Source of the DNA: Eledone cirrhosa
Lineage: Eukaryota
Reading direction: 5' to 3'
Length of the DNA stretch: 64,000 nt
Assembly (NCBI GenBank): GCA_964016885.1
Contig: CAXHJY010000001.1
Location: 620,001-684,000, forward strand
Shown here: positions 68 through 34,632 of the stretch, in pieces
How positions within the stretch are numbered: the stretch's first letter is position 1
Layout: every line of letters begins with the position of its first letter
Made by a program: the position numbers and the translations under genes
The notes under the pieces: model-generated
Seen by the model: the letters and a program-made list of their open reading frames with translations, nothing else
Databases searched by the model: none
Told to the model about the DNA's origin: nothing

Positions 68-205
68 TGTGTAAAACAGGTAAATTTGGACCCAACTGTA
101 AATACACATGACACTGTGCTGATAACAGCAGGTGTAACAAAGAGACAGGTGTGTGTTCTAGTGGAGGATGTGCTGTTGGTTATGAAGGTAGCAACTGTCA
201 GACAG
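68..205 (+). pseudogene. EGF-module exon A (138 bp) with in-frame TGA replacing a conserved Cys
   Basis: ccacAG acceptor and GTAAGT donor. Translates xCKTGKFGPNCKYT*HCADNSRCNKETGVCSSGGCAVGYEGSNCQT; TGA at 109-111 where paralogs have TGT/TGC. Confidence 0.8.
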
Positions 206-368
206 GTAAGTGGTGTAGTATAGCTTTGTTTCTAACTTAATATATTGGGTTATTACATGGAAGGGAAACATGTATGCTACATGTGTTAGAAGTGACATGA
301 TTTATCGGAGCAAGGAGCTGTCCTTCGACCGCATACTCATGCAGAACATTCCATATTTTTATTTTCAG

Positions 369-523
369 GGTGTAAAACAGGTAAATTTGGACCTAACTGT
401 AAACACACATGTTACTGTACTAACAACAGCAGGTGTAACAAACAGCTAGATGTAACACAGAGACAGGTGTGTGTTCCAGTGAAGTGTGTGGTGATGGTTA
501 TGAAGATAGCAACTGTAAGACAG
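369..523 (+). pseudogene. Degenerate EGF exon B, frameshifted by an internal duplication
   Basis: tttcAG acceptor, then CKTGKFGPNCKHTCYCTNNSRCNK; an extra aacagctagatgtaaca-type segment gives 155 bp instead of 138 and breaks the frame. Confidence 0.75.
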
Positions 524-574
524 GTGTGTTACAGTAGAGGGTGTGGTGCTGGTTATGAAGAAGTGGTACATAGT

Positions 575-1197
575 TTCTGTTACTTGCAGTGGAGGAAGGT
601 GTTCTGAAAGCACAATAGCCAGTGTGAGAATGGGTTGAAGAAAGTTCAGTGAGCTACTAAATCCCCACCCCTCACCCATGCCCCTAAATCTACCTCCTCA
701 ATCCCCATGCAACTGCCCCACTCAAGTCCCCAGTCCACACTGTAAAGTGGTTGTGATAGTGCCACAACGAAAATGCCCAGCCCACACTATAAAGTGGTGA
801 TGTTGGTGACACAAAATGTGCCCAGCCCTCATTGTAAAGTGGTTGTGATAGTGCCACAACAAAAATGCCCAGCCGACACTGTAAAGTGCTTGTGATAGTG
901 CCACAACAAAAAGTGCCCAGCACACACTGTAAAATGGTTGTGATAATGCCACAACAAAAAGTGCTCAGCTCTCATTGTAAAGTGGTCAAGTTGGTGACAC
1001 AACAAAAAGTGCCCTGTCCACACTGTAAAGTGGTTGGCATTTGGAAGGGCATCCAGCCATCAAAACCAATCCCAAATCAGTTCTGCATAAGCAAGACATG
1101 GCCATCTGACCCAACTTTTCTCACAATGGGACAGTATATCTAACCCATGCTAGCATAGAAAATGGACATTATATGGTAATGATGAGGATGATGATTA
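575..1197 (+). mobile_element. Degenerate RTE LINE 3' fragment with ~44-bp tandem repeats in its 3' UTR
   Basis: Resembles the SGGGCSEST..RVRTGWKKFREL-coding segment and 3' UTR (cacactgtaaagtgg, ggaagggcatccagc, GAT tail) of the RTE at 42834-46266. Confidence 0.6.
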
Positions 1198-1257
1198 TCT
1201 TGTATAGTGTTATATGTTGTTGTTGTTGTCATTGTTCTCATATTTTTATTTCCACAG

Positions 1258-1394
1258 TCTGTAGAAATGGTATATTTGGAGCCAATGTGGCAACACATGC
1301 CACTGTGTTGACAACAGTAAATATAACAAACAGACAGGTGTGTGTTCTAGTGGAGGATGTACTGCTGGTTATGAAGGTAGCAACTGTCAGACAG
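1258..1394 (+). pseudogene. EGF exon C, 137 bp (1-bp deletion plus Cys>Tyr)
   Basis: AG and GTAAGT intact, but gccaa-tgtggc lacks one base relative to exons D/E (gccaactgtggc), and AAATGT has become AAATAT. Confidence 0.8.
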
Positions 1395-1442
1395 GTAAGT
1401 GGTGTAGTATAGCTTTGTTTATAACTTAATATAGTGGGTCAA

Positions 1443-1654
1443 GACAACAGCAGGTGTAACATACAGAGAGGTGTAACAAACAGCGAGATGTAACACAGCG
1501 ACAGGTGTGTGTTCCAATGAAGTGTGTTGTGTAGTATAGCTTAGTCTGTAGCTTAATATATTGAAACAAAACAACATCAGGTGTAACATAGAGACAGGTG
1601 TATGTTCTAGTGGAGGATGTGCTGCTGGTTATGAAGGTAGCAACTGTCAGAGAG
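1443..1654 (+). pseudogene. Two partial EGF-exon relics (3' halves)
   Basis: acaacagcaggtgtaac...gacaggtgtgtgttc pieces; the second ends tgtcagagag|GTAAGT with no 5' half or acceptor. Confidence 0.7.
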
Positions 1655-1681
1655 GTAAGTAGTATAGTAATTAAACTTCCT

Positions 1682-3178
1682 ATTACCATATTTCTAATGA
1701 AAGACACTGTATATGTCATTAACCCTTTCATTACCATATTTCTAATGAAAGACACTGTCTATGTCATTAACCCTTTCATTACCATATTTCTAATGAAGGA
1801 CACTGTATATGTCATTAACCCTTTCATTACCATATTTCTAATGAAGGACACTGTATATGTCATTAACCCCTTCATTACCATATTTCTAATGAAAGACACT
1901 CTATGTCATTAACCCTTTCATTACCATATTTCTAATGAAAGACACTGTCTATGTCATTAACCCTTTCATTACCATATTTCTAATGAAGGACACTGTATAT
2001 GTCATTAACCCTTTCATTACCATATTTCTAATGAAAGATACTGTATATGTCATTAACCATTTCATTACCATATTTCTAATGAAAGACACTCTCTGTCATT
2101 AACACTTTCATTACCATATTTCTAATGAAAGACACTCTATGTCATTAACCCTTTCATTACCATATTTCTAATGAAAGACACTGTCTATGTCATTAACCCT
2201 TTCATTACCATATTTTTAATGAAGGACACTGTATATGTCATTAACCCTTTCATTACCATATTTCTAATGAAAGACACTGTCTATGTCATTAACCCTTTCA
2301 TTACCATATTTCTAAAGAAAGACACTGCCTATGTCATTAACCCTTTCATTACCATATATCTAATGAAAGACACTGTCTATGTCATTAACCCTTTCATTAC
2401 CATATTTCTAATGAAAGACACTGTATATGTCATTAACCCTTTCATTACCATATTTCTAATGAAAGCCACTGTCTATGTCATTAACCCTTTCATTACCATA
2501 TTTCTAATGAAAGACACTGTCTATGTCATTAACCCTTTCATTACCATATTTCTAATGAAAGACACTGTCTATATCATTAACCCTTTCATTACCATATATC
2601 TAATGAAAGACACTGTCTATGTCATTAACCCTTTCATTACAATATTTCTAATGAAGGACACTGTATATGTCATTAACCCTTTCATTACCATATTTCTAAT
2701 GAAAGACACTCTATGTCATTAACCCTTTCATTACCATATATCTAATGAAGGACACTGTATATGTCATTAACCCTTTCATTACCATATTTCTAATGAAAGA
2801 CACTCTATGTCATTAACCCTTTCATTACCATATTTCTAATGAAAGACACTGTCTATGTCATTAACCCTTTCATTACCATATTTCTAATGAAGGACACTGT
2901 ATATGTCATTAACCCTTTCATTACCATATTTCTAATGAAAGACACTGTCTATGTCATTAACCCTTTCATTACCATATTTCTAATGAAAGACACTGTCTAT
3001 GTCATTAACCCTTTCATTACCATATTTCTAATGAAAGACACTGTCTATGTCATTAACCCTTTCATTACCATATTTCTAATGAAAGGCACTGTCTATGTCA
3101 TTAACCCTTTCATTACCATATTTCTAATGAAAGACACTACCTATGTCATTAACCCTTTCATTACCATTTTTCTAATAA
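1682..3178. repeat. 48-bp tandem satellite, array 1 (~31 units)
   Basis: Unit ttaaccctttcattaccatatttctaatgaaagacactgtctatgtca, with occasional 46-bp variants. Confidence 0.95.
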
Positions 3179-3526
3179 GGTAAGTGATGTAGCATAACTT
3201 TGTTGTAGCATAATATATTGAAACAAAACAACAGCAGGTGTAACTTAGAGACAGGTGTGTGTTCTTATTGAAAGTTTGACATCGCAACTCATTTTTATAG
3301 CTGAGTATCTTGAGCAACATGAAATAAAGTGACTTGTTCAAGAACACAAAACACAGCAAGATTCAGGCATCGAACTCACAACTTTATGATTGTAAGCCTG
3401 ACGCTCTTACCACTAATCCTTGTGCCTTCAATAGATATAATATAGAGGAATAGATATAATATAGGTTGTAGGGATATAGTACAGATGATATAGATATAAA
3501 ATAGTTGATATCACTATAGTATAGAT

Positions 3527-5283
3527 TAGGGGTCATCAAATCCCTGGCCACATCTGGCCTGCCGACAGGTTTTAATCTTAGACTAAGCGATCCCCTTAAA
3601 AATTGTTCCGAATTATTTGGGATTAAAATACCAACTAGAGAACACGTCTAACCACAAGACTCACTTAACTGAACGTAATGTTTTAATGTGACAGTAAGAA
3701 ACAATCAAACTCAGAGAGATAGAATAGTCAGACATCGAGGTCAAAGGGACTATGTGTGTGTATTCGTGTATATATGTACATACATAGTATCTGTATGGCA
3801 GGGATGTGAAATGACCCAGACTTACCTAAAAAAGTCAGTATGTCTGACATAGTTATTTCATTTCATCCTCAAAATTGTTCATTTTAGTTAACTGTCTGGT
3901 AGTAAAACATCTGTAAGGGACTGTATTTGATAATAATCAATGTTTATTTATTTTTCTATGTTAAAAGTGTTCAGTATTATTAGAAGTAAATATGTTCAAT
4001 GAACAAATGGCAACCCTGGTTTAAATACACTGCCAGGTGTCATGACTTTGTCAGAGTTTATTAAAAATGTCAGAGTATTTTATTATATTACTGCATTCTT
4101 TTTACATATGTTCTCATTACTTATTTGATATCATGGCCTGCTGACGAGACACTACATAGCTATGTGACTTGCTGACGAGACACTACATAGCAATGTGGCT
4201 TGCCGACGAGACACTACATAGCAATGTGGCCTGCTGGTGAGACACTCCATAGCTATGTGGCCTGCTGACAAGACACTACATAGCTATGTGGTCTGCTGAG
4301 GAGACACTACATAGCAATGTGGCCTGCTGGTGAGACACTGTATAGCTATGTGGCCTGCTGACCAGACACTACATAGCTATGTGGCCTGCTGGTGAGACAC
4401 TGCATAGCTATGTGGCCTGCTGCTGAAACACTGCATCGCTATGTGGCCTGCTGACAAGACACTGTATAGCAATGTGGCCTGCTGGTGAGACACTCCATAG
4501 CTATGTGGCCTGCTGGTGAGACACTGCATAGCTATGTGACCTGCTGACAAGACACTCCATAGCTATGTGGCCTGCTGACAAGACACTGCATAGCTATGTG
4601 GCCTGCTGCTGAAACACTGCATCGCTATGTGGCCTGCTGACAAGACACTGTATAGCAATGTGGCCTGCTGGTGAGACACTCCATAGCTATGTGGCCTGCT
4701 GACAAGACACTGTATAGCTATGTGGCCTGCTGACAAGACACTGTATAGCAATGTGGCCTGCTGACAAGACACTCCATCGCTATGTGGCCTGCTGAAAAGA
4801 CACTGCATAGCTACGTGGCCTGCTGGTGAGACACTCCATAGCTATGTGGCCTGCTGACAAGACACTGTATAGCAATGTGGCCTGCTGACAAGACACTCCA
4901 TAGCTATGTGGCCTGCTGACAAGACACTGTATAGCAATGTGGCCTGCTGACAAGACACTCCATAGCTATGTGGCCTGCTGACAAGACACTGTATAGCTAT
5001 GTGGCCTGCTGGTGAGACACTCCATAGCTATGTGGCCTGCTGACAAGACACTGTATAGCAATGTGGCCTGCTGACAAGACACTCCATAGCAATGTGGCCT
5101 GCTGACAAGACACTACATAGCTATGTGGCCTGCTGACAAGACACTGTATAGCAATGTGAGCAACTGACAAGACACTTCTCAACAATGTGGCCTGCCAGTG
5201 AGACACTGCATAGCAATGTGGCCTGCCTGTGTGACACTCCATAGCAATGTGGCCCGCACACCCCAAAAGGATGCCGACCTCTG
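3527..5283. mobile_element. Non-autonomous hAT (Charlie-like) element, copy 1, containing a 31-bp satellite
   Basis: Perfect 8-bp TSD GTATAGAT at 3519-3526 and 5284-5291; imperfect TIRs TAGGGGTC / GACCTCTG; ggccacat/atgtggcc subterminal motifs. Confidence 0.8.
4133..5255. repeat. 31-bp tandem satellite, array 1
   Basis: Unit atgtggcctgctgacaagacactgtatagc(t/a). Confidence 0.95.
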
Positions 5284-5391
5284 GTATAGATGACAACACT
5301 ATAATATATATGATATAATATTGTGATATTTATTATCTTGTATAGTGTAAATGTTGTTATAATTGTCATTGTTCTCATATTTTATTTCCAG

Positions 5392-5529
5392 TCTGTAAAT
5401 CAGGTAAATTTGGAGCCAACTGTGGCAACACATGTCACTGTGCTGACAACAGTAAATGTAACAAACAGACAGGTGTGTGTTCTAGTGGAGGATGTGCTGC
5501 TGGTTATGAAGGTAGCAACTGTCAGAGAG
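5392..5529 (+). CDS. EGF exon D: open frame but donor mutated (GT>TT)
   Basis: VCKSGKFGANCGNTCHCADNSKCNKQTGVCSSGGCAAGYEGSNCQR; matches exon E except the last codon; followed by TTAAGT instead of GTAAGT. Confidence 0.55.
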
Positions 5530-5557
5530 TTAAGTAGTATAGTAATTAAACTTTCTA

Positions 5558-6630
5558 TTACCATATATCTAATGAAAGACACTGTATATGTCATTAACCC
5601 TTTCATTACCATATATCTAATGAAAGACACTGTATATGTCATTAACCCTTTAATTACCATATTTCCAATGAAAGACACTGTCTATGTCATTAACCCTTTC
5701 ATTACCATATTTCTAATGAAAGACACTGTCTATGTCATTAACCCTTTCATTACAATATTTCTAATGAAAGACACTACCTATATCATTAACCCTTTCATTA
5801 CCATATTTCTAGTGAAAGACACTGTCTATGTCATTAACCCTTTCATTACCATATTTCTAATGAAAGACACTGTATATGTCATTAACCCTTTCATTACAAT
5901 ATTTCTAATGAAAGACACTACCTATATCATTAACCCTTTCATTACCATATTTCTAGTGAAAGACACTGTCTATGTCATTAACCCTTTCATTACCATATTT
6001 CTACTGAAAGACACTGTCAATATCATTAACCCTTTCATTACCATATTTCTAGTGAAAGACACTGTCTATGTCATTAACCCCTTCATTACCATATTTCTAA
6101 TGAAAGACACTGTCTATGTCATTAACCCTTTCATTACAATATTTCTAATGAAAGACACTACCTATATCATTAACCCTTTCATTACCATATTTCTAGTGAA
6201 AGACACTGTCTATGTCATTAACCCTTTCATTACCATATTTCTACTGAAAGACACTGTCTATGTCATTAACCCTTTCATTACCATATTTCTAATGAAGGAC
6301 ACTGTCTATGTCATTAACCCTTTCATTACCATATTTCTAATGAAGGACACTGTCTATGTCATTAACCCTTTCATTACCCTATTTCTAATGAAAGACACTG
6401 TATATGTCATTAACCCTTTAATTACCATATTTCCAATGAAAGACACTGTCTATGTCATTAACCCCTTCATTATTATATTTCTAATTAAAGACACTACCTA
6501 TGTTATTAACCCCTTCATTACTCTATTTCTAATGAAAGACACTGTCTATGTCATTAACCCTTTCATTACCATATTTCTAATGAAAGACACTGTCTATGTC
6601 ATTAACCCTTTCATTACCATATTTCTAATA
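5558..6630. repeat. 48-bp satellite, array 2 (~22 units)
   Basis: Same unit as 1682-3178. Confidence 0.95.
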
Positions 6631-6996
6631 AGGTAAGTGATGTAGCATAACTTTGTTGTAGCATAATATATTGAAACAAAACAACAGCAGGTGTAACTTA
6701 GAGACAGGTGTGTGTTCCTATTGAAAGTGTGACATCACAACTCATTTCTATAGCTGAGTATCTTGAGCAACATGAAATAAAGTGACTTGTTCAAGAACAC
6801 AAAACACAGCAAGATTCAGGCATCGAACTCACAACTTTATGATTGTAAGCCTGACGCTCTTACCACTAATCCTTGCGCCTTCAATAGATATAATATAGAG
6901 GAATAGATATAGTACAGCTATAGATATAATATAGGTTGTAGGGATATAGTACAGATGATATAGATATAAAATAGTTGATATCACTATAGTATAGAT

Positions 6997-9900
6997 TAGG
7001 GGTCATTAAATCCCTGGCCCGTGGGAACATCTAGCCCGCGGGCCACATCTGGCCTGCCGACAGGTTTCAATCTTAGACTAAGCGATCCCTGAAAAAGTGT
7101 TCTGAATTATTTGGGATTAAAATACCAACTAGAGAACACGTCTAACCTCAAGACTCACTTAACTGAACGTAATGTTTTAATGTGACAGTAAGAAACAATC
7201 AAACTCAGAGAGATAGAATAGTCAGACATCGAGGTCAAAGGGACTGTGTGTGTGTATTCGTGTATATATGTACATACATAGTATCTGTATGGCAGGGATG
7301 TGAAATGACCCCGACTTACCTAAAAAAGTCAGTATGTCTGACATAGTTATTTCATTTCATCCTCAAAATTGTTCATTTTAGTTAACTGTCTGGTAGTAAA
7401 ACATCTGTAAGGGACTGTATTTGATAATAATCAATGTTTATTTATTTTTCTATGTTAAAAGTGTTCAGTATTATTAGAAGTAAATATGTTCAATGAACAA
7501 ATGGCAACCGTGGTTTAAATACACTGCCAGGTGTCATGGCTTTGTCAGAGTTTATTAAAATTGTCAGAGTATTTTATTATATTACTGCATTCATTTTTAC
7601 ATATGTTCTCATTACTTATTTGATATCATGGCCTGCTGACGAGACACTGCATAGCTATGTGGCCTGCTGACGAGACACTGCATAGCTATGTGGCCTGCTG
7701 ACAAGACACTACATAGCTATGTGGCCTGCTGGTGAGACACTACATAACAACGTGGCCTGCTGGTGAGACACTGCATAGCTATGTGGCCTGCTGGTGAGAC
7801 ACTACATAGCTATGTGGCCTGCTGGTGAAACACTCCATAGCTATGTGGCCTGCTGACAAGACACTACATAGCTATGTGGCCTGCTGGTGAGACACTACAT
7901 AGCTATGTCGCCTGCTGGTGAGACACTCCATAGCTATGTGGCCTGCTGGAGAGACACTGCATAGCTATGTGGCCTGCTGGTGAGACATTACATAGCAATG
8001 TGGCCTGCTGGTGAGACACTACATAGCAATGTGGCCTGCTGGTGAGACATTACATAGCTATGTGGCCTGCTGCTGAGACACTACATAGCTATGTGGCCTG
8101 CTGACGAGACACTCCATAGCAATGTGGCCTGCTGGTGAGACATTACATAGCAATGTGGCCTGCTGACGAGACACTACATAGCTATGTGGCCTGCTGGTGA
8201 GACACTCCATAGCTATGTGGCCTGCTGGTGAGACACTGCATAGCTATGTGGCCTGCTGGTGAGACATTACATAGCAATGTGGCCTGCTGGTGAGACACTA
8301 CATAGCAATGTGGCCTGCTGGTGAGACATTACATAGCTATGTGGCCTGCTGCTGAGACACTACATAGCTATGTGGCCTGCTGACGAGACACTCCATAGCA
8401 ATGTGGCCTGCTGGTGAGACATTACATAGCAATGTGGCCTGCTGACGAGACACTACATAGCTATGTGGCCTGCTGGTGAGACACTGCATAGCTATGTGGC
8501 CTGCTGGTGAGACATTACATAGCAATGTGGCCTGCTGGTGAGACACTACATAGCAATGTGGCCTGCTGGTGAGACATTACATAGCTATGTGGCCTGCTGC
8601 TGAGACACTACATAGCTATGTGGCCTGCTGACGAGACACTCCATAGCAATGTGGCCTGCTGGTGAGACATTACATAGCAATGTGGCCTGCTGACGAGACA
8701 CTACATAGCTATGTGGCCTGCTGGTGAGACACTCCATAGCTATGTGGCCTGCTGGTGAGACACTACATAGCAATGTGGCCTGCTGGTGAGACATTACATA
8801 GCAATGTGGCCTGCTGACGAGACACTACATAGAAATGTGGCCTGCTGGTGAGACACTCCATAGCTATGTGGCCTGCCGACAAGACACTACATAGCAATGT
8901 GGCCTGCTGGTGAGACACTACATAGCAATGTGGCCTGCTGACGAGACACTACATAGCTATGTGGCCTGCTGGTGAGACACTCCATAGCTATGTGGCCTGC
9001 TGGTGAGACATTACATAGCAATGTGGCCTGCTGACAAGACACTCCATAGCTATGTGGCCTGCTGACAAGACACTGTATAGCAATGTGGCCTGCTGACAAG
9101 ACACTCCATAGCTATGTGGCCTGCTGCTGAGACACTACATAGCAATGTGGCCTGCTGGTGAGACATTACATAGCTATGTGGCCTGCTGATGAGACACTAC
9201 ATAGCTATGTGGCCTGCTGACGAGACACTCCATAGCAATGTGGCCTGCTGACAAGACACTCCATAGCTATGTGGCCTGCTGGTGAGACACTACATAGCAA
9301 TGTGGCCTGCTGGTGAGACATTACATAGCAATGTGGCCTGCTGACGAGACACTACATAACTATGTGGCCTGCTGGTGAGACACTCCATAGCTATGTGGCC
9401 TGCTGGTGAGACACTACATAACAATGTGGCCTGCCAACGAGACACTCCATAGCAATGTGGCCTGCTGGTGAGACACTCCATAGCTATGTGGCCTGCTGAC
9501 AAGACACTGTATAGCAATGTGGCCTGCTGACGAGACACTCCATAGCAATGTGGCCTGCTGATAAGACACTACATAGCTATGTGGCCTGCTGACAAGACAC
9601 TGTATAGCTATGTGGCCTGCTGACAAGACACTGTATAGCAATGTGGCCTGCTGACAAGACACTCCATAGCAATGTGGCCTGCTGACAAGGCACTACATAG
9701 CTATGTGGCCTGCTGACAAGACACTGTATAGCTATGTGGCCTGCTGACGAGACACTCCATAGCAATGTGGCCTGCTGATAAGACACTACATAGCTATGTG
9801 GCCTGCTGACAAGACACTCCATAGCAATGTGGCCTGCTGACAAGACACTCCATAGCAATGTGGCCTGCTGACAAGACACTCCATAGCAATGTGGCCTGCT

Positions 9901-10142
9901 GACAAGACACTACATAGCTATGTGGCCTGCTGACAAGACACTCCATAGCAATGTGGCCTGCTGGTGAGACACTCCATAGCTATGTGGCCTGCTGACATGA
10001 CACTGTATAGCAATGTGAGCAACTGACAAGACACTTCGTAACAATGTGGCCTGCCAGTGAGACACTGCATAGAAATGTGGCCTGCCTGTGTGACACTGCA
10101 TAGAAATGTGTCCCGCACACCCCAAAAGGATGCCGACCTCTG
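6997..10142. mobile_element. Non-autonomous hAT element, copy 2 (duplicated with the host segment)
   Basis: Same GTATAGAT TSD (6989-6996, 10143-10150) and same flanks as copy 1. Confidence 0.8.
7628..10115. repeat. 31-bp satellite, array 2 (~80 units)
   Basis: Same unit as 4133-5255, more than twice as long. Confidence 0.95.
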
Positions 10143-10250
10143 GTATAGATGACAACACTATAATATAGATGATATAATATTGTGATATTTATTATCTTGT
10201 ATAGTGTAAATGTTGTTATAATTGTCATTGTTCTCATATTTTATTTCCAG

Positions 10251-10388
10251 TCTGTAAATCAGGTAAATTTGGAGCCAACTGTGGCAACACATGTCACTGT
10301 GCTGACAACAGTAAATGTAACAAACAGACAGGTGTGTGTTCTAGTGGAGGATGTGCTGCTGGTTATGAAGGTAGCAACTGTCAGACAG
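10251..10388 (+). CDS. EGF exon E (intact)
   Basis: tttccAG / GTATAT; VCKSGKFGANCGNTCHCADNSKCNKQTGVCSSGGCAAGYEGSNCQT, 8 Cys, 138 bp. Confidence 0.8.
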
Positions 10389-10400
10389 GTATATGTAGTA

Positions 10401-11362
10401 ATTAACCCTTTCATTACCATATTTCTAATGAAAGACACTGTCTATGTCATTAACCCCTTCATTACCATATTTCTAATGAAAGACACTGTCTATGTCATTA
10501 ACCCTTTCATTACCATATTTCTACTTAAAGACACTGTCTATGTCATTAACCCTTTCGTTACCATATTTCTAATGAAAGACACTGTCTATGTCAGAGGAGA
10601 GGAACCTTTTTACCATTAGAGGCCACATTTAAATTAGGCAGTAATAAAGGAGGCCGCATAAGTTGATATACCTATGAATGCGACTTTTGTGAAATTATTA
10701 TAGTTTTTGTATAGTTTTATAGTCATTTATTATTTAACATAAAAAGTTACAACATAAAATATTTTTGTATTCACATAATTATAAAGAAATACAATAGAAA
10801 AATAATAATATTAAGTTAAAAAAACTAATATAGCAAAAATACGTAAAATAATTTTAAAATCCGATGGAAAATTCAAGTTAGTCGGATATTTGCATTTGTT
10901 TCTTGCTTGAAAGTAATTGAATATTTGGATTAAGGTTTAATGACATAGACTCTATGTCATTAAACCTTTCATTACCAAGTTTCTACTTAAAGACACTGTC
11001 TATGTCATTAATCCTTTCATTACCATATTTCTACTTAAAGACACTGTCTATGTCATTAATCCTTTCGTTACATATTTCTACTTAAAGACACTGTCTATAT
11101 CATTAACCCTTAGATTACCATATTTCTACTTAAAGACACTGTCTATGTCATTAATCCTTTCATTACCATATATCTACTTAAAGACACTGTCAATATCATT
11201 AACCCTTTCGTTACATATTTCTACTTAAAGACACTGTCTATGTCATTAACCCTTTCATTACATATTTCTACTTAAAGACACTGTCTATATCATTAACCAT
11301 TTCATTACCATATTTCTACTTAAAGACACTGTCTATGTCATTAATCCTTTCATTACCATATT
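10401..11362. repeat. 48-bp satellite, array 3, interrupted by a hAT-like fragment (10592-10930)
   Basis: Same unit. The interruption starts CAGAGGAGAGGAACCTTTT...ggccacat, resembling a hAT terminus. Confidence 0.85.
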
Positions 11363-11580
11363 ACTAAAGAAATATATTGCATACGATTTTAAAAAAATGT
11401 TTATATAATGAAGAATTTGAAGGGCTATAGTTATATAACTGAGATTTTGATCACTAATATTTTGGATGGAACATAACCTAACAAAAGTTCTCACATAATA
11501 CTATAGTGGGAGGTTTTTAGATAAATATATAGAGTAAAACAGTTAATCGGTGTCAGGTATTTTGATATCAAAAAGGTTAA
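11341..11580. mobile_element. TTAA-flanked MITE (piggyBac-like ends)
   Basis: Starts TTAATCCTTTCATTACCA (last satellite unit) and ends TGATATCAAAAAGGTTAA, an imperfect inverted copy. Confidence 0.55.
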
Positions 11581-11641: not shown

Positions 11642-11779
11642 CCTGTGACATTGGTAAATTTGGAGCTAACTGTAAACACACATGCCACTGTGCTGATAAT
11701 AACAGGTGTAACAAACAGACAGGTGTGTGTTCTAGTGGAGGATGTACTGCTGGTTATGAAGGTAGCAACTGTCAGACAG
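11642..11779 (+). CDS. EGF exon F (intact)
   Basis: ttacAG / GTAAGT; ACDIGKFGANCKHTCHCADNNRCNKQTGVCSSGGCTAGYEGSNCQT. Confidence 0.85.
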
Positions 11780-18813: not shown

Positions 18814-18844
<31 letters not shown>

Positions 18845-19317: not shown

Positions 19318-19348
<31 letters not shown>

Positions 19349-20172: not shown

Positions 20173-20203
<31 letters not shown>

Positions 20204-21005: not shown

Positions 21006-21044
21006 TTGTTGTTGATGATGTTTACTGTTATTTTTGTACATTCT

Positions 21045-22520: not shown

Positions 22521-22561
22521 TTCCATCTAACTTCTATATTCTTCATATTTAATGTACCCAG

Positions 22562-22699
22562 AGTGTAGAAGTGGTAAATTTGGTGACAACTGTATTAACT
22601 TATGTCACCGTGCCAACAACAGCAAGTGTGACCCCATCACAGGTGTATGTTCCAGTGGTGGCTGTGAAGCTGGCTATCAAGGTAGCAATTGTCAGACAG
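22562..22699 (+). CDS. EGF exon H (open frame; one Cys>Arg)
   Basis: cccAG / GTGAGT; ECRSGKFGDNCINLCHRANNSKCDPITGVCSSGGCEAGYQGSNCQT. Confidence 0.85.
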
Positions 22700-23428
22700 G
22701 TGAGTCATTCAGTAGATCTTCTATGCTATTTGTATTTCTAGGTGAGCACATGGCACTTCAAAGTGAGATTCCAAACTTACCAAGGAAAGAGTGACATGAA
22801 AAGACCGAGGCTCCTTTGGGGTGCATTTTTGTCAGAGGCCAGTTAAACCTACATAGGTAGAGCTGTAACAACATGATAGGCCTGGGGTCCTTATTATTAA
22901 AACACCCAGAATATTTCCCATGGAGTGCATCCTTGTAGGCGGCCAGCCAAACCTACATAAATGTGAGCTGTAACAACAACATGATAGGCATGGTGTCCTT
23001 ACCATTGAAACACCCAGAATACTTCCTATGGGGTGACAACCTCATAGGAGGCCGACTAAGCCTATAAAGGTGCTTGTTTAAAAAAAATAAAACTTGACTA
23101 TAAACCAAATGGATACACCATTGTTTCTCTTCTTCACTGATACTCTCCCCATGTGCCTTCTCCTCCTGCTTTCCACCACTACTATATTGGACTCTGTTCC
23201 TCGGAGTATTCTAAGTTCATGCCACCTCCACTCAGACATTTTCAACTGACTCCTCTCTCTTCTTTTCGTCCCACATTTTGTATCCACTTGGTGCCACCCT
23301 AATTAGTATAATCTCTCAAGAACTGGTGCACCCAGGCCACTCAGTAAAGTGGTTGGTTGCAAGAGAAATACCCAACCAGTAAAACCAAGCCAAAACTATG
23401 TAAAGCACAAATGTACCTATGTTTTTAA

Positions 23429-23656
23429 TTAACCCTTTCGTGTTCAAACCGGCCCAAACCGGCCAGAATTCTCTACCTCTTTCTGTTGATATTGGCTGTA
23501 ACTGGTCGCTCAAACTGATGTGAAGGTATTGTTCTCAAAATAAATACTTTCAAAATCTCATAGATTCGATATTATGTGAGATAATTATGTGAGATAAAGC
23601 CTTTACCATGAAAATACAATATTATATATAGAGTAATGTGAATGGTAAAGGGTTAA
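23429..23656. mobile_element. TTAA-flanked MITE, second family
   Basis: TTAACCCTTT...AAAGGGTTAA termini; inverse orientation of 15882-16101. Confidence 0.7.
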
Positions 23657-24061
23657 TAATGATTTCTTAATTTTGGAGTAAAGAGAAAGTCAGTTGATTA
23701 TATCTACCCCAGTATTTAACTGGTACATTATTTTATCAAGCTTGTAAAAATGACATTCAAGTTTGACCTGAGCAAGATTTGAACTCAGAACTCAGAAGTT
23801 CTGCAAAGCATTTCATCCAACAAACACTCCAACAGTTCTGCCCATTTCTTTCCCTTTTACAACAAAAGGATGACATTGTTCATCTAGAAAACACACGTGG
23901 TGTTTATGAGGCTGTTTGCTGGCAAACAAACTGAATATTAATGATATTATAATACTATTATAACATTATTGTTATCCAGTGTATTACTAATAAAGTACCA
24001 GTAATACACTGGGATAATTGCTAGCCTTGTGCAAAAAGTAGAAATAATTATTATTGAATAG

Positions 24062-24260
24062 CGAGGGTGGTGGATTGGCAGTATCGGTAGAGCGTCAGAT
24101 GCCATGCTTTGCAGCATAGAGTTACGGTTCTTTACGGTCTGAGTTCAAATCCCGCCAAGGTTAACTTTGCCTTTCGTCCTTACGGGGTCGATAAAATAAA
24201 GTACCAGTAATGCACTGGGGTAATTGCTGGCCTTGTGTCAAAAGTCGAAACAATTCTTAT
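24062..24260 (+). mobile_element. tRNA-derived SINE
   Basis: TGGCAGTATCGG box A-like, GAGTTCAAATCC box B, shared SINE body. Confidence 0.8.
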
Positions 24261-24301
24261 TCACTCATGAATAAATAATAAATAATAGCTCTATATTTCA
24301 G

Positions 24302-24439
24302 AGTGCTCCAGTGGCAAGTTTGGTAAAGATTGTAGCTATAGCTGTCACTGCTATGACAATAGCACGTGTAACCCTAAATCTGGTACCTGTTCGAGTGGTG
24401 GGTGTACACCTGGCTATAAAGGTAACAACTGTCAAACAG
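24302..24439 (+). CDS. EGF exon I (intact)
   Basis: tttcAG / GTGAGT; ECSSGKFGKDCSYSCHCYDNSTCNPKSGTCSSGGCTPGYKGNNCQT. Missed by the ORF track. Confidence 0.88.
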
Positions 24440-24726
24440 GTGAGTGAAATGAAAGAAGCTAATTACTCTGTGCAACATATATGAATTCTTGTTTTATCTC
24501 TCAAAACTTTAGGTTGTTCTTTATTAGTCATTCCCAAAGTGGGATCCATGGAACCCAAGGGTTCTGCAAAGGAATGTCTGGGGTTCCATGAAAAAAAGGT
24601 AGAGAAGTATATTTATATTCAAAGCATATAAAAATATGAGACTTTGGGATTCCGCCAGAAGTTTCTGAACCAAAAAGGGTTTGCTTTTTTTTTTATTAAC
24701 AAACAATGTTTTTGTTTCTTTGAAAG

Positions 24727-24864
24727 TCTGCCAGAATGGTAGATTTGGCAGCAACTGTGAAGGTATATGTCACTGTGTAGACAGCAACAAATGTGACTCA
24801 GTGACAGGAATATGTTCTGACGGAAGATGTGTTGCTGGTTTTGAAGGAAGAAACTGCCAAAATG
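24727..24864 (+). CDS. EGF exon J (intact)
   Basis: gaaAG / GTGAGT; VCQNGRFGSNCEGICHCVDSNKCDSVTGICSDGRCVAGFEGRNCQN. Confidence 0.88.
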
Positions 24865-26339
24865 GTGAGTAAAACTAAATATCGAATTTCCATTCTGTCT
24901 TTTTTTCTAGGGGGGGGGGGGGGGGGGGGGGCAGATTTGTAAATTAAAATAAAAGCTGGTGAATTGACAGTATCTTTTTCAATATCTTTTATTCACCTCT
25001 TTATAATATGTAAGGATACTGTCAGTTGTTTACAGTTTAAACTAGTTATGAGATCAATGAACTGTCATCTCTATCTAACACTAACACAAGTGGTAAAGCT
25101 GTTGGATTTACAATCATAATGTTGTGGGTTTGGTTCCTGGACTTGGCTGTGCATTGCGTTCTTAAGCAAAACATTCTTGCGTAGTATACTCAGTTGAAAA
25201 TGAGTACCAGCAATTGCTGGGGGATTTTAAATTCCATCCTGCACAGGACAGGAGTCCTGTGCAGGATGGAATTCTATACTCTCAGTTGCTTCACACCATG
25301 GAAACCGAGATAAGCACATTCCACCCTTCTCTCAGGCATTGCATAACTAGGACTACACTATTTAATGTGTCCTTTCCTTTTTATCATACTAATCTATAAT
25401 TTGGCTGTTACTTGTTCTGAGTCTAAAGTCTGTCTCAAGCCTGGATGCTAATCAGGCCAGTGTTTACCTTGGTTTCCATGGTGTTAAGTGACTGACAGTA
25501 AACAATTCCAGCCTGGACAGGACACCAGTCCATTGCAGAGAAAACCCCCCAGCAATTGTTGATACTCATTTCCAACTGAGTATACTGAGTATATAGGCAG
25601 TGAATTGGCAGAGTCGTTAGAACATCAGATAGAATGCTTTGTGGTATTCGTTCCGACTCTCTGCTCTCTGAGTTCAAATCCCGCTGAGGTCAACTTTGCC
25701 TTTCATCCTTTTGATGTCAATAAAAAAGTACCAGTCTAGTACTGGGGTCGATTCTTCTTCTATATCTCTTTCTCATTTCCTCTCTCTCACTTTCTATCTT
25801 TCTCTGGAAGAAATCTGCTGTATTCAGGCCTGGTCAGGGATGGGCTCCGCCTGGCTTAAAATACCCAAGAAAGGATGTCTGTTAATACGGCACCTCTACA
25901 ACTCTGTCAGGAGTTACAGGACCATACATACATACTGAGTATAATGTTTTGCTCAAGAACATAATACACAACCCAGTCCAAGAATGAAACCCAGAACATG
26001 ATTGTAAGTTTAACACCATTTACACTTGTGTTAGTGTTAAATAGAGCATGAAAGTTTATTAGCTTTGTTGCAATTAGTTGAGACACAAAATAACTGGCAC
26101 AGTGTCCTTTCCTATTGTAAGAGGTGAATAAAAGAGTTCACACACACATACACATAAACACACACATGCACTCACACTCTAAAACACACAAACACACTCA
26201 CACACATACTCTTTCACACTCTTAAATGCTCAAATGTACTCACACACTAAAACACACAAACACACTCACATTAAAACACACAAATGCACTCACTCACACA
26301 CACTTAAACACAGTAATGTAAATGTTAAATAGATTAAGG

Positions 26340-26632
26340 CAGTCATGGGTAACCTGCGGCCCACAAAGCTTTCTAAATTACTCACCTAAATCACCTAAGT
26401 AAAATCTTTCTGATTTTTTTACCCCAACTTTTCAGTCGTAATTTATCTTTCTATAATTTTTAACGATTGAGGAAAACAACGTGTACGAATTCTGAAGAAA
26501 CAAATCAAAACAACCTGAGTTATCACCCTTTTTTTTTAATGTGGGCACAAATGTAAATTAGCGCTTGCGGCCTCCCTGATGATGAGCCATATCTCATGCA
26601 GCCCGCTTCTCGAAAAAGGTTGCCCATGCCTG
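26340..26632. mobile_element. hAT-type MITE
   Basis: TIRs CAGTCATGGGTAACCT / AGGTTGCCCATGCCTG; degenerate 8-bp TSD gattaagg / ggttaatg. Confidence 0.7.
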
Positions 26633-27855
26633 GGTTAATGGCTGAAACCCTTGCATGAGGTGAGAGGGTGGTTCTTCTCTGGTGACCTTCTCCTGTCCAA
26701 CTTTCTTGAGAGTTTCTGACCACATAATACTACATAGTACGGCATAAATACTGTTACAAAATAAAATGCTTATAACTCCTTCAATATTTATTGTACCTAG
26801 CTACAATTGTGGCACAATGTAATTAATAAAATGTTTATTAACACCATGAAATCTTATTTGATATGCTTTCCTTTTGTTCTCACATCTCGAGATCATCTTT
26901 ACATAGCCTCCTCATGGATCTCTCTGAAATTTCGGCCTCTTTCACCATTTTTCTCATGAATCTTTTTGGCTTACATCTGATTTTCTCATGCATGTATTTG
27001 ATTAGTTTTGGTGTTCAGAAGGTGCTAGGACGTCCTGATCTTGGCTTTTGTTGAGGAAGTTTCTTTGAAGTGATCAATGGTCCTTTTTATGAGCATTCTG
27101 TTAATTTCAAGCTGTTTTCCAGTTATAAAAATCTGAGGTGGAGTCTACTTTTTTTCATGCTGTCCAATTATGAATTTTCCTTTCAATTCTAAGGACATTT
27201 AAATAATAATAATAATGAAATTATTGTGTACACTGCTCAGGTGCATATATAGTACATAGAATAATGTATAAAGGCCAGGAAAGTGAACAGTGTATGAGTC
27301 ATGAAATACACACACATGCATGCGTGTGTATGGAAGGGGGATATCAGGTGTAGTGTTGGCGAATTTCAGGAAGCATGGAGGTTTTAAAGGATGTAGTGTC
27401 CCAGTAGCTAACAACTGATGCAGGTAATTTGTTCCATGCTTCAGCAACTCTGAACATGAAAAAATGTGCAATGAATCCTTATATAACCCCCAAAACAGTT
27501 AGTATATAGTATTAGGTTAATATTTGAGCAATCAGATCAATAATAAAGTAATTATTATTGGTTTCTTATATAAGCATAAGGCCAGAAATTTGTGGGTGGG
27601 GGGGGTCTATTAAAGCGCTCCCTGTGTGTGACTGGTACTTTATTTTATCGACCCAGTAAGGATGAAAGGCAAAGTTAATCTGGGCGGGATTTGAACTCAG
27701 ATCATAAAGGGCCGTAACTCTATGCTGCAAAGCATAAAGTAATTAATATTATGACTTAAACTCATTTGATATTTTGTAACAGTATTTATGCTGCACCCTG
27801 TATATATTTGTAAAGTAATGTTAGATATTTCTACTTGTTTGTTTTATTTTAACAG

Positions 27856-27993
27856 TGTGTAAAGCTGGTTATTTTGGTGTCCATTGTTCAAATCCCTGTA
27901 AATGCAAGGACAGTGCAAACTGTAACCCTAAAACTGGACACTGTCCAAACAACAAGTGTCTACCTGGTTTTACTGGTCATGACTGCCAAGCTT
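27856..27993 (+). CDS. EGF exon K (intact)
   Basis: taacAG / GTTAGT; VCKAGYFGVHCSNPCKCKDSANCNPKTGHCPNNKCLPGFTGHDCQA. Confidence 0.88.
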
Positions 27994-28039
27994 GTTAGTA
28001 TGCTTATTTTAAACTGTAAATGTTCATTTATTAACAGCG

Positions 28040-29169: not shown

Positions 29170-31640
29170 CATCATCATCATCACCGTTTTACGTCCGTTC
29201 TTCCACGCTAGCATGGGTTAGACGGGTTGTCCTGTTGTGGGCAGTGTCTGGTCGGCTGACTATGCTTTGCTCATACAGGAACTGATTTGGCTTGATTTCT
29301 ACAGCTGGATGCCCTTCCTAACACCAACCTCATTTACAGTGAGTGCTGGGTGCTTTTTCGTGTTGCCTACACGTCCACTTTACAGTGTGGGCTGGGTGCT
29401 TTTTGCCGTGGCACCTCCACGACCACCTTGAAGTGGGGGGTGTGGGGGCTTATTGTCTATATGCATCAGCTTGTACCCATGGGAGGTCGGGTACTCTGTA
29501 TTTCTGCGAGACGCCAGAGGTCACGGTCATGTGTCATCGCCTTTGAGAGGTGGAATTGGGTAAGGTCGGTTTTTATCACCTCATCCCAGGTCATCTTGGG
29601 TCTCCCCACTCCGCGGTTTCCATCGACTTCTAGTGCTCTGCACCTTTTTATGCAGCTGTCATCCTTCATACGCATCACATGTCCATACCAACGCAACTGC
29701 CTCTCCTGCACACAGCATTTGATTCCTCTTATGCTCAGTCTCTCTCTCAATTCATTTATGCTTTGTCGTTCGCGTATATTACTGTTACACATCCATCGGA
29801 GCATGCAGGCTTCGTTTCTCTCTAATCTACATAAGTCTTCCACCTTCAGCGCCCAGGTCTCACTACCATGCAACATTGCTGTTCGGATACACGCATCATA
29901 CAGTCTGCCTTTCATTTTGAGGGAAAAGCCTTTTGCAGCTAGCAGTGGTAGTAGTTCCCTAAGCTTCTTCCATCCCGTTCTTACCCTAGTTATTGTACTT
30001 TCTGAACACCCACCTCCGCTGCTAATTCGGTCACCTAGGTAGCAGAAGCTGTCTACTCTTTCTACAGAGCCCTCCGAGAGATTGGTGGTACTTGTTTCCT
30101 GTGGCTTTTTGCTGCGTGCTGTCCCAGCACAGCTGCTGCATGTGAAGCCTACATTCTTAATTAAGCTTCCTGAGATCCCGCTACATCTCTTGTGTACCCA
30201 TTGTTTGCATTTGGGGCAGGGAATGGAGTTCCTACCTACACCTTTCCTACATACTGAGCAAGGCCATTTCCCTGAGGGGATCTGGGTTCTGTTTTCTCGT
30301 CTACTTACAAGGACCTGAGTCTTTATCATGTTGACTTTGAGACCCTTTCTTTCTAGTCCCTGCTTCCAAGTTTGGAATTTCTTCTCTAGCTCTACCATAG
30401 ATTCAGCTATAAGTGCGAGGTCATCAGCATACAGGAGTTCCCATGGGCATCCGGTCTTAAACTCCTCCGTTATTGCCTGCATGACTATGATGAACAGGAG
30501 GGGGCTAAGAACAGAGCCCTGGTGGACCCCAACCTGTACGCTAAATTCCTCGCTATACTCATTACTAATCCTAACTTTGCTGACTGCTCCCCTATACATG
30601 GCTTGTACCGCTTTCACAAGCCATTCATCTACTCCTAGTTTTCTAAGAGCCCATCAGATTACAGCACGTGGAACTCTGTCAAAGGCTTTCTCGAGATCGA
30701 CAAATGCCAGGTAGAGTGGCTTGCTTTTAGCTAGGTACTTTTCCTGTACTGCCTCACAAGGAAGAGGGCATCAGTGGTGCCTCTTCCTGGTACAAACCCA
30801 AATTGCATCTCATCTAGTTTCACCCGGTCCCTAATCAACTGTGCTATAACTCTTTCTGTTACTTTCATGACCTGGTCCATCAGCTTTATACCTCTATAGT
30901 TTCCTCTATCTAGTGCATCACCTTTACCTTTGTAGCAGTTGACAATAATGCTACTGCACCAATCTTTTGGTATGACACCTTCTAGTATTACCTGGTTAAC
31001 AATACGTGTGGTTATAGTGTGACCTACAGACCCAGATGCCTTCAGCATCTCAGCAGCTATACCCGATGGACCGGTTGCCTTCCCCATCTTCATATCTTTA
31101 ATTGCCTTACTTACTACGCTGCTGCTGACTTGTACTGCTGGCCCCTCTATAGGGTCTACTTGGGGTAGGGTCTCTTCTTCTCATGCATTCTCCTCATTTA
31201 GTAATCTATCATAATGACTCTTCCATGCATCTTTCTTCTCAGCACTTGTGAGGGCAAGCTCACCTTTATCATTCCGGATACACTTCTCTCCAATGACATC
31301 ACAATTCTCTCTGACACACTACCTCGCAATCTTGAACACCTCCTGTTTCTGGTCCTTACATTGCAAAACATGCTTGAATTTTCTATCCTCTGCTTCCCTC
31401 CTAGCTAAGTATACTTGTCGCCTAGCTTCCCTCTTGTTCTCTATGTAATTTACCCTGCTCCCCCCGTTCTTCCATTCTTTCCATGCCTGTCTCTTGGCCT
31501 TAACTGCCTCATATACCTTATTGTTCCACCACCAAGTCACTCTCCTCCTGCTTGAGGTCTTACTCCAGCCACAGACCTCATCCGTCGCCTCTAGTAAGTT
31601 ATTTTTTAGGAACTCCCAGTTCTCTTCTACATTGAATGTC
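29170..31640 (-). mobile_element. 5'-truncated RTE LINE inserted into a TTAA MITE
   Basis: RT motifs VGVHQGSVLSPLLF and LLYADD, a Cys-rich insert, (GAT)n tail, frameshifts and stops. The MITE halves flank it (28965-29169, 31641-31668). Confidence 0.92.
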
Positions 31641-31877
31641 TATGAGTAATGTAAATGCTAAAGGGTTATATATTGACTTCTTTCAATAACCGGTCACCAA
31701 TACTGACATTAAGGTATTCTTCTCAAAATAAATAATATCATCATCAAAATCTCGTAGTCTCCATAATATGTGATAAAGTGTTTACTGTAAAAATACAATA
31801 GTATATATATATAAAGTAATGTAAATGCTAAAGGGTTAAATTTACTAAATTTCTGTTTGATCCTTTATTTCATCCAG

Positions 31878-32015
31878 TCTGTCCAAGCAATACTTTTGGG
31901 TCTAACTGTCAAAAGGTTTGTCATTGTGAAGAAGGTAAATACTGCAACAGAACCAATGGTGTTTGTGAAGAGGGCAACTGTGAACCAGGCTATATAGGAA
32001 CTGATTGTCAAACTG
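31878..32015 (+). CDS. EGF exon L (intact)
   Basis: atccAG / GTTGGT; xCPSNTFGSNCQKVCHCEEGKYCNRTNGVCEEGNCEPGYIGTDCQT. Confidence 0.88.
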
Positions 32016-32020
32016 GTTGG

Positions 32021-32980
32021 TTTAATACTCTTTTACGTTTACTACTAACTAGTATAACTATATTATTAATGTCTACATATGTTTATTACTCTTTTACTTT
32101 TACTACTAACTAGTATAACTATATTATTAATGTCTACATATGTTTATTACTCTTTTACGTTTACTACTAACTAGTATAACTATATTATTAATGTCTATAT
32201 AGGTTTATTACTCTTTTACTTTTACTACTAACTAGTATAACTATATTATTAATGGCTACATATGTGTATTACTCTTTCACTTTTACTACTAACTAGTATA
32301 ACTAAATTATTAATGACTACATAGGTGTATTACTCTTTCACTTTTACTACTAACTAGTATAACTATATTATTAATGACTACATATGTTTAATACTCTTTT
32401 ACTTTTACTACTAACTAGTATAACTATATTATTAATGACTACATAGGTTTATTACTCTATTACTTTTACTACTAACTAGTATAACTATATTATTAATGAC
32501 TACATAGGTTTATTACTCTTTTACTTTTACTACTAACTAGTATAACTATATTATTAATGACTACATAGGTGTATTACTCTTTCACTTTTACTACTAACTA
32601 GTATAACTATATTATTAATGACTACATATGTTTAATACTCTTTTACTTTTACTACTAACTAGTATAACTATATTATTAATGACTACATAGGTTTATTACT
32701 CTATTACTTTTACTACTAACTAGTATAACTATATTATTAATGACTACATAGGTTTATTACTCTTTTACTTTTACTACTAACTAGTATAACTATATTATTA
32801 ATGACTACATAGGTTTATTACTCTTTTACTTTTACTACTAACTAGTATAACTATATTATTAATGGCTACATAGGTGTATTACTCTTTTACTTTTACTACT
32901 AACTAGTATAACTATATTATTAATGACTACATAGGTTTAATAGTCTTTTATTTCTACTTCTAACTAGTCTAACTATATTA
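32021..32980. repeat. 61-bp AT-rich satellite (~16 units)
   Basis: Unit actcttttacttttactactaactagtataactatattattaatgactacataggtttatt, starting just after the exon L donor. Confidence 0.95.
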
Positions 32981-34494
32981 TGGCAGTATCGGTAGAGAGT
33001 CGGATGCCGTGCTTTCCAGCATAGTTATGTCCCTTTACAATCTGAGTTCAAATCCCGCCGAAGTTAACTTTGCCTTTCATCCTTACGGGGTCGATAAAAT
33101 AAAGTACCAGTAATACACTGGGATAATTGCTGACCTTGTGCTGAAAGTAGAAACAATTATTATTCCTGGTGGACAGTAATGGACCACAGGTGACAGGTTA
33201 ATGTGGGTAGTAAAGTATCTCAGGAGAAAGGTAGATGTAGACAGAAGTATTTGCAAGGAAGCAAACTTGCACCTGTTCCTTACAGGACCCTCCATCTACT
33301 TCTTTCTATCTCCACATGTACTTTATCTGGTTTTCCTAACTGTTATTTATAGTGATCAACTATTATGAAAGTCTTTTACGTTGGAACTACTGCAAATAAA
33401 TAAAATAGTATAAGAAAACATCACAGGAATATGACAAGCATAGAAATATCACTGATGATGTCACAGATATGTGATGAAAAAACTCTGAGAAACTATATTT
33501 ATATTTATATTTTTTAACTGTTGGTCAATCAATATATATAAAAATTTGCTGAAGTATGGAACAAACTACCTGCATCAGTTGTGTGCTGCCAGGACACTGC
33601 ATCCTTTAAAACCTCCATGCTTCCTGAAATTCACTGAAGCATGGAACAAACTACCTGCATCAGTTGTTAGCTGCCGGGACACTGCATCCTTTAAAACCTC
33701 CATGTTGCCTGAAATTCGCCAACCCTGCACCTGATATTCCCCCTCCATACATACATACACACACACACATATATCTTGACTCGAGCCTAGTTAGTACTTA
33801 GATGGGAAACCACTTGAGAAACCTAGGTGCTGTAAGCATTTCCTTTTATTTTTTTTTTGCGCCAACACTACACCTGATATTCCCCCTCCATACACACGCA
33901 TGCATGTGTCTGTGTGTATCTCATGACTCATACATTGTTCACTGTCTGTTCACTAATGTACTATACATTCACCATTGATGAGTTGTAGTGCACCTGAGCA
34001 CTGTACACAATAATTTTATTATTATCATCATCATCATCATTTTACGTCCGCTTTTCCCTGCTTGCAAGGGTGGGACGGGTCTTATTAAGCATGGCATCTC
34101 TTCATTCGTCACGGTCCCTTGTCATCTCCTCCGTGAGTTTCAGCAATTTGAGGTCTTCTCTCACCACCTCCGCCCATGTTTTTCATGGTCTACCTCTACT
34201 GCGTCTTCCTTCTACTGGGATTTGTTGGCACTTCTTTACCCAGCGGTCATCCTCCATGCGCATCACATGTCCATACCATCTCAGCTCAGCCTTCTCTCCT
34301 GCACACCACAACTTATCCCTCTTATACCCAGTTTCTTTCTCAACTCGTCTATGCTTGGTCATTCACGCACATTGGCATTATAGTTATGTATAATTGTGTA
34401 TATGTATGTTATAGCTGTGTATAATTGTATATATGTGTTATTTTATATATATGTTGTGTATATAATTCTATTTTCTTTTTTTTTTTTTTTTCAG

Positions 34495-34632
34495 AATGTA
34501 AAAAGGGTTATTTTGGCTTGAACTGTCAGTATTTGTGCCACTGTGCTGACAACGATCATTGCGACATTAAATCTGGGGTGTGTTCTAGTGTTGGATGTGC
34601 AGCTGGTTTCAGGGGAGACAACTGTCAGTCAG
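34495..34632 (+). CDS. EGF exon M (intact; last EGF exon seen)
   Basis: Poly-T tract, cAG / GTGGGT; ECKKGYFGLNCQYLCHCADNDHCDIKSGVCSSVGCAAGFRGDNCQS. Confidence 0.88.

Follow-up and report, generated by a model that had tools for sequence, protein, structure and literature searches.

Receptors of the SCARF1/MEGF10/Draper group are conserved genes with a stable number of repeats of the epidermal growth factor (EGF) type, an EMI/NIM head and an NPxY/ITAM tail. In the Dscam exon clusters of arthropods, tandem exon copies of the same phase undergo turnover, and one exon is picked per cluster. Receptors of the molluscan MEGF/galactose-binding domain (GBD) group lie under peaks of parasite resistance in snails, and both the number of EGF repeats and the gene content vary there between haplotypes (PMC12297450, PMC13712769). 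The SudRes1 region of Biomphalaria sudanica holds paralogues of MEGF/GBD receptor protein tyrosine phosphatases (RPTPs), with duplicated segments and loss of EGF repeats in a resistant snail (PMC12297450), and LG5R of B. glabrata is described as containing "scavenger class F-like receptors" of the same subgroups (PMC13712769). The repeats of SCARF1 shape a long curved rod (PMC11563577). Here we analyzed an array of EGF exons in a 64,000-nucleotide stretch of the octopus Eledone cirrhosa (contig CAXHJY010000001.1 of GCA_964016885.1, 620,001 to 684,000, forward strand), called the window below; all positions refer to it. The array is real and belongs to a family known to vary; what is new is the inferred scale of its amplification and a visible mutational route. 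We propose, with moderate confidence, that the array encodes a receptor stalk, the receptor being a molluscan one of the MEGF type with a single membrane pass, and that unequal crossing-over between repeat arrays has raised its front block to some forty times the single copy.

Searches with the first copy (tblastn and blastn), together with a scan for AG...GT units, revealed the array. It consists of 13 full-length exon copies (A to M), all on the + strand between 68 and 34632, and several half-exon relics; the coordinates bear out an earlier note on this DNA in both respects. Eleven of the 13 copies are 138 bp long, B and C being 155 and 137 bp, and in all of them an AG precedes the start and the first Cys codon lies two bases in (phase 1/1). 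The note was right, then, about the phase-1 splice sites and about the 138-bp length of the copies without frameshift. Open AG-138-GT units with at least seven Cys codons numbered ten on the + strand and zero on the − strand, against two in total over 30 local shuffles. Nine of these ten are exons E to M; the tenth was not matched to a named copy. The array is not a product of chance. Each exon corresponds to one repeat, uniformly 46 aa long and of the eight-Cys MEGF/SCARF type, except that H has seven Cys.

Damage is confined to the first four copies, as the note had said of the 5′ end. Exon A (68-205) has a perfect donor and carries a TGA stop at codon 14 (109-111). Exon B (369-523) is frameshifted by a 17-bp internal duplication and ends in a tail of the 54-bp type described below (518-561). 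Exon C (1258-1394) lacks one base near 1285 and has one Cys changed to Tyr, and exon D (5392-5529) has an open frame and a donor changed from GT to TT. Exons E to M are nine intact 138-bp phase-1 exons: E (10251-10388), F (11642-11779), G (17023-17160), H (22562-22699), I (24302-24439), J (24727-24864), K (27856-27993), L (31878-32015) and M (34495-34632), which is the last exon detected in the window. When joined by script, they give a frame that is open over 413 aa with no stop. The claim that G to M are diverged but keep the Cys frame does not hold for H, which has Arg in place of the fourth Cys. The donors of K, the most diverged copy, and of L, which adjoins a 61-bp minisatellite, are weak (6/9 consensus matches). 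Half-exon relics lie at 1443-1530, 1570-1654, 3227-3265, 6680-6717 and 11828-11932 (just after F) and in the tail of B; those within 1443-1654 (+) consist of 17-bp slippage units and a 3′ half exon with its donor at 1655.

The copies at the 5′ end are younger but not, as had been claimed for A to F, close to identical. A, D, E and F share 86-90% of their nucleotides and 80-84% of their amino acids, and only D and E reach 99% at the nucleotide level. The likeness of G and H to the young copies is still 72-81%, and that of K and L to all others about 50-59%; the divide between young and diverged copies is thus a gradient. An intron flank common to A to F was likewise only partly found: gtaagtggtgtagtatagctttgttt follows A, C and F, but the 3′ flanks of D (ttaagtagt), E (gtatatgta) and B (gtgtgttac) differ. 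Among G to M, dN/dS is mostly 0.1-0.5 where dS is computable, with two pairs involving K higher (0.51 and 0.74). It is 0.36 for E/F and 0.70-0.81 for A against D, E and F, the latter on few sites (about 3 synonymous and 9 replacement changes). No branch of the exon tree was starred, and only A+F (86/92) and D+E (81/80) group; therefore, we claim no order of events. The segmental duplication of D and E, the restriction of damage to A to D and the higher dN/dS of A support a concentration of birth and death at the 5′ end of the array, as the earlier note proposed. This polarity is nothing special, because young repeats, present in 57 homologues, are mainly N-terminal in 11 and mainly C-terminal in 8 of them.

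The DNA around the young exons suggests how they are multiplied and destroyed. Two units lie in tandem on the + strand, at 3177-5551 and 6630-10401, and each contains a relic, a spacer, a 31-bp minisatellite (4134-5254, 36 copies, and 7629-10110, 80 copies) and an exon, D in the first and E in the second. The three unique segments are 98.0, 98.0 and 98.9% identical between the units. The units are bounded by a 48-bp minisatellite (1682-3176, 31 copies) and by further minisatellite arrays (5551-6629, 10401-10593 and 10951-11366). Bounding by 48-bp arrays is the layout expected if unequal crossing-over had occurred within them. Exon D itself is a mosaic, because its 5′ flank is like that of E and its 3′ flank is like that of the relic at 1654. 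Short direct repeats also occur inside the young exons: A and F each hold AGGTGT twice at a spacing of 17 bp, whereas E holds CAGACAGGT twice at a spacing of 57 bp, the second copy being the donor. The relics and the 17-bp insert of B match the AGGTGT pair. A 54-bp minisatellite (13076-15658, +, 48 copies) derives from the 3′ half of the exon; its unit aligns between the two CAGACAGGT motifs of E, and its best alignment is to the tail of B. Exons I to M do not have these internal motifs, which would give a simple mutational reason for turnover at the 5′ end. Each unit of the 54-bp array carries a donor-like CAG/GTGTGT, and the array is a clean case of conversion of an exon into a satellite; a coding role for it was rejected, because its frame is open yet is not the EGF frame. 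The G-H intron (17216-22519) is almost entirely simple repeat: ACC-type units fill 3.8 kb of it and a 16-bp unit another 1.5 kb.

Public sequencing runs point to an amplification much larger than the window shows. Four runs, X1 to X4, carry 22530-28030 at shares of 0.79, 0.76, 0.75 and 0.30. They come from one study and two samples (X1 to X3 from one, X4 from the other), their kind being unrecorded, and their contigs were compared with window positions 1-1680 only, at 85% likeness. X1 to X3 are DNA-like, because their contigs run from exons into introns. Seventeen listed pieces, covering B, the short interspersed element (SINE) cluster, relics and flanks, match with 0-3 other letters at depths of 514-665. 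Among them, pieces of B (364-477 and 449-745) have 1-2 other letters at depths of 547-665, so the damage of B is real, and the relic pieces 1391-1498 and 1500-1632 have none at 554-644. In contrast, the only contig at 1285 has the base that C lacks (894.2 of 894.2 in X1 and 828.8 of 828.8 in X3). The damage of B and the relics are confirmed, and at least one apparent death, the frameshift of C, is absent from the contigs of another sample. The region 248-363 has no window-like contig; this is a hole and proves nothing.

Two yardsticks were used for single-copy depth. Lone contigs of a minor repeat at 315-331 have depths of 12-20, which gives block ratios of 43, 40 and 35 (range 27-50). The SINE depth of about 0.9 million, set against 2-4 loci per 62 kb, gives a single-copy depth of 9-21. 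We estimate that the block from A to the F-G intron, introns included, likely stands at 35-45 times single-copy depth in one sample. The D/E-type flank has a depth of 959-1057, about twice that of the block, as in the window, and the relic of F and the C type have depths of 660-721 and 829-894. The bin matching the 54-bp array reaches 97,000-133,000 against 720 expected from one locus, although this is a summed depth inflated by overlaps. A unit type absent from the window has a depth of 183-254, about 14-17 times single-copy, suggesting more exon classes outside the window. Its joints, 210>257, 387>1286, 469>1324 and 1401>1331, show a shorter intron before a B-like acceptor and an exon that is not in the window. 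A single-copy depth near 570 in X1 to X3, as very deep sequencing would give, was rejected, because the SINE would then number only about 1,600 copies, whereas 62 kb of the window alone hold 3 separate loci.

A contig of X4 looks spliced, although contigs give neither expression level nor strand. X4 shows zero depth in the intron bins 1-56 and 1401-1512, whereas exon A is covered at 284-952. Its record 32 (444 nt, depth 121) matches 1304-1394 with its places 78-168 and shares with exon G the letters A at 1350, G at 1361 and C at 1364. The match ends at 1394, which is the donor, though the G intron would extend it by 12 bases. The record has a layout of 30+3x138: an exon begins at place 31 after 30 nt (k-1), and 276 nt (2x138) follow. 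Record 32 is thus likely a spliced chain of three exons, one of the G type and two further 138-nt units. In record 26, which is A-type (G at 69), T is read at 111, giving Cys instead of the stop; an A-type exon with Cys at this place therefore exists. In sample S1, letters other than T account for 603-646 of the depth at 111.

Homology searches point to a molluscan receptor family. The best match of solved structure is human SCARF1 (PDB 8HNA, E 2e-11). The top profile match is XP_036365016.1 of Octopus sinensis (P0001), which has an F5/8 galactose-binding domain, EGF repeats, a transmembrane (TM) segment and a protein tyrosine phosphatase (PTP). Among the 120 matches listed, 64 are named as molluscan (hand count): 25 with a PTP, 13 with a GBD and no PTP, 4 adhesion G protein-coupled receptors (GPCRs), 2 kinases and 20 that are EGF-only or other. 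Draper, PEAR1 and MEGF11 are among the matches but score below molluscan and amphioxus proteins, and in the window their masked sequences, which were among the 260 EGF-masked homologues used as queries, had no non-EGF match. The earlier comparison with the repeats of MEGF10/CED-1/Draper and SREC thus stands as MEGF/SCARF-type homology, which points to the molluscan galactose-binding/MEGF/phosphatase group rather than to MEGF10/Draper itself. Matches of single exons to Pfam (EGF_STAB1-2, laminin EGF, DSL) were mostly below the cut-off, with one laminin-EGF match passing at 21.2 bits, so we took no Pfam name as identity. Judged by its sequence relatives, the receptor is likely one that bears a sugar-binding tip and ends in a tyrosine phosphatase.

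Turnover of repeats is also seen in the relatives. We surveyed 260 homologues, a set that includes non-independent isoforms and possibly faulty gene models. Eight or more repeats are found in 124 of them, and 57 of these 124 have at least two repeats with a sister at 80% or more; the largest repeat count is 42. The TM and PTP parts of P0001 and of P0260 from O. vulgaris are 82% alike, but the two proteins have 17 and 6 repeat matches, respectively, by annotation. Three predicted isoform models of one cuttlefish MEGF-PTP have 6, 7 and 8 repeats. Together with the published snail loci, this survey makes local repeat turnover ordinary in this receptor family. No account of such a locus in octopus was found in the open-licence literature, although supplements may list such genes.

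If the protein resembles its relatives, it would be a type I receptor in which the EGF exons form a rod carrying a sugar-binding head and signals pass through a phosphatase tail. The rod-like stalk would keep the ligand-binding head off the membrane, and the number of repeats would set its reach and not its specificity. Broken copies would be skipped, or would be part of dead gene copies. It is by analogy with relatives that we assign the putative head and tail, the ligand, the tissue and the immune role.

Several observations weigh against this reading of the array as the stalk of a MEGF/GBD RPTP with an amplified front block. The repeats of P0001 are 43/45 aa long, not 46, and at most 65% identical to any exon, so P0001 is a paralogue. 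Word and profile searches yielded no orthologue, queries with the exon combinations K/L and G/J/M returning 5 and 6 distant matches, respectively, and orthology to a named MEGF/GBD RPTP was likewise not found. Single exons have their best identities (70% or less) with amphioxus kinases and GPCRs, which means that the module does not fix the receptor tail. No signal peptide, lectin, TM or PTP exon was detected in the window by tblastn of P0001 or with the 260 EGF-masked homologues, which matched only open reading frames of long interspersed elements (LINEs) and Penelope and exon F. The earlier note had seen neither a signal peptide nor a TM exon, and neither end of the gene is in fact in the window. 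A scan for phase-1 TM exons 3′ of M gave a sole TM-like candidate, which lies inside a transposon. The 29 kb 3′ of M, mostly transposons, contain no TM helix or PTP domains, which may lie beyond the window; the F5/8 domain has no match in the window either, and the gene starts upstream of it. Record 32 shows 14 differing letters in a stretch in which the G of the window has 16 relative to C; it is therefore of the G type but not proven to be this G, and its last 276 nt are known by length alone. Finally, contig depth is no copy number, as the read tool itself warns, and the single-copy yardstick is indirect and comes from one sample (three runs) of unrecorded kind.

Another architecture with the same module, such as an adhesion GPCR, a tyrosine kinase or a secreted or short-tailed MEGF protein, is a possible but clearly less likely alternative. 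The 46-aa module occurs in oyster adhesion GPCRs, in limpet and amphioxus kinases and in GBD-only proteins, and the joined frame of E to M matches an amphioxus GPCR best (53% over 421 aa). However, kinases and GPCRs make up only 6 of the 64 molluscan matches, and the cephalopod proteins among ten matches looked up from the representative search are all PTP or GBD forms.

A single gene with a giant intragenic exon macrosatellite, as in the kringle IV type-2 (KIV-2) repeat of human LPA, has a similarly tentative standing. Here G to M would be single, the upstream block would be repeated tens of times, stalk length would vary greatly between alleles, and broken copies would be skipped in frame. 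A block depth of 35-43 times that of lone contigs speaks for this model. G to M are indeed single and diverged in the window, and X1 to X3 have no G-type contig at 1364, a hole that is weak and proves nothing. The G-type contig of X4 is one unbroken 444-nt piece, whereas young-type contigs are short and of several kinds, and the two Octopus proteins mentioned above, alike in TM and PTP, differ in annotated repeat matches. On the other hand, the young-type depth in X4 (256-283) is only about 2 times the G-type depth of 121 and not a hundredfold, with the caveat that this is contig depth, which is no expression level, and the other sample. The amplified stretch extends at least to the 54-bp array (13-15.7 kb) in window-like proportions, which gene-sized copies would fit equally, and no homologue exceeds the 42 repeats noted above. 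Because the young-to-G ratio in X4 is low (about 2 at single places) and the extent is gene-sized, we lean slightly towards a cluster of many gene-sized copies, as in the snail resistance loci, over one giant intragenic array.

It is unlikely that exon debris, dead and non-coding, makes up the 5′ copies as a satellite (or that assembly error accounts for part of them), with the gene being the chain from about E/F or G on. All four first copies are damaged, dN/dS is near 0.8 for A (few sites), the exon has already given rise to true minisatellites, and the frameshift of C is absent from the X1 and X3 contigs, as an indel error would be. Nevertheless, E and F are intact with low dN/dS between them, and A-type and young-type contigs of X4 begin at the exon edge with no depth in the adjacent intron, one of them having Cys at the stop of A. 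Because another sample bears out B and the relics in every letter, the array cannot be an artefact of assembly.

More doubtful still is a Dscam-like use, in which young exons would be alternatively included to give many isoforms per animal for recognition: symmetric phase-1 exons permit such a choice, the donors of K and L are weak and cuttlefish isoforms are predicted with different repeat numbers, but no exon-skipping joint was found among 15 joints listed of 350 (X1 to X4 contigs, window 1-1680), the 33-nt 3′ ends common to E and F would by themselves make contigs break at the ends of exons, and the young copies are 80-98% alike at the amino acid level and would thus add length rather than new surfaces. 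We give as little weight to a hybrid of KIV-2 and Dscam, in which one gene would carry a minisatellite-driven macrosatellite of a few hundred EGF exons (about 40 blocks of six plus other classes) that is collapsed or cut off in the assembly, intact copies would be spliced in, pseudo-exons skipped, and stalk lengths would differ widely between alleles and isoforms.

Transposable elements were also noted in the window. A piece of the L-M intron (32019-33783), comprising the 61-bp array and unique DNA, is copied at 38668-39931, about 6 kb downstream, with 97% identity. The copy sits between two inverted end pieces of a Penelope-like element (38580-38658 corresponds to 42755-42677, and 39931-40262 to 41875-42206, inverted), and is apparently host DNA captured during a Penelope-like insertion. 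A Penelope-like element has an open frame of 560 codons at 40226-41905 (−), with what we take to be reverse transcriptase-like and GIY-YIG-like motifs. A Helitron-like element lies at 51151-57171; its frames (52256-55006), presumably with Rep/helicase motifs, are broken by stops and flanked by 190-bp direct repeats (51151-51333 and 56980-57171). LINE reverse transcriptase remnants are found at 29488-31634 (−), 35770-38400 (−), 42850-45872 (+) and 47500-50340 (+), the first and third being 75% alike.

The array shows, at the DNA level, machinery that can produce haplotype differences such as those described in snails: one exon per repeat, minisatellite-bounded duplication and exon-internal microhomologies, the last of which convert exons to relics and have given rise to a new minisatellite. 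The length of the stalk or the number of genes thus likely varies. If the amplification of about forty-fold is true, the family would be much larger, or the gene much longer, than the assembly shows, and copy number would be a simple trait to compare, in a cephalopod, with the outcome of infection or with tissue recognition. With the molluscan MEGF/GBD receptor tyrosine phosphatases the locus shares tandem eight-Cys EGF repeats in one open frame, but it has no GBD, TM or PTP in the window and its repeats are uniformly 46 aa long. SudRes1 is reported to hold clustered paralogues of recent origin, segments that were duplicated, and EGF domains that were lost between haplotypes (PMC12297450). About 40 copies are inferred here, whereas the snail has 3 SudRes1 RPTPs and 14 others. 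SCARF1/SREC, MEGF10/MEGF11/PEAR1 and CED-1/Draper have the same repeat type as the exons here, but their EMI/NIM head and NPxY/ITAM tail are not visible in the window. For the intragenic model, the closest analogue is the coding variable-number tandem repeat of human LPA KIV-2, a multi-kilobase tandem unit that carries an exon; the D and E units (98%) are of this kind, but units here are mosaic, minisatellite-bounded and mixed with pseudo-exons. Finally, same-phase exon copies are found here as in Dscam-like clusters, but in contrast to Dscam, the X4 contig suggests that consecutive exons are joined.

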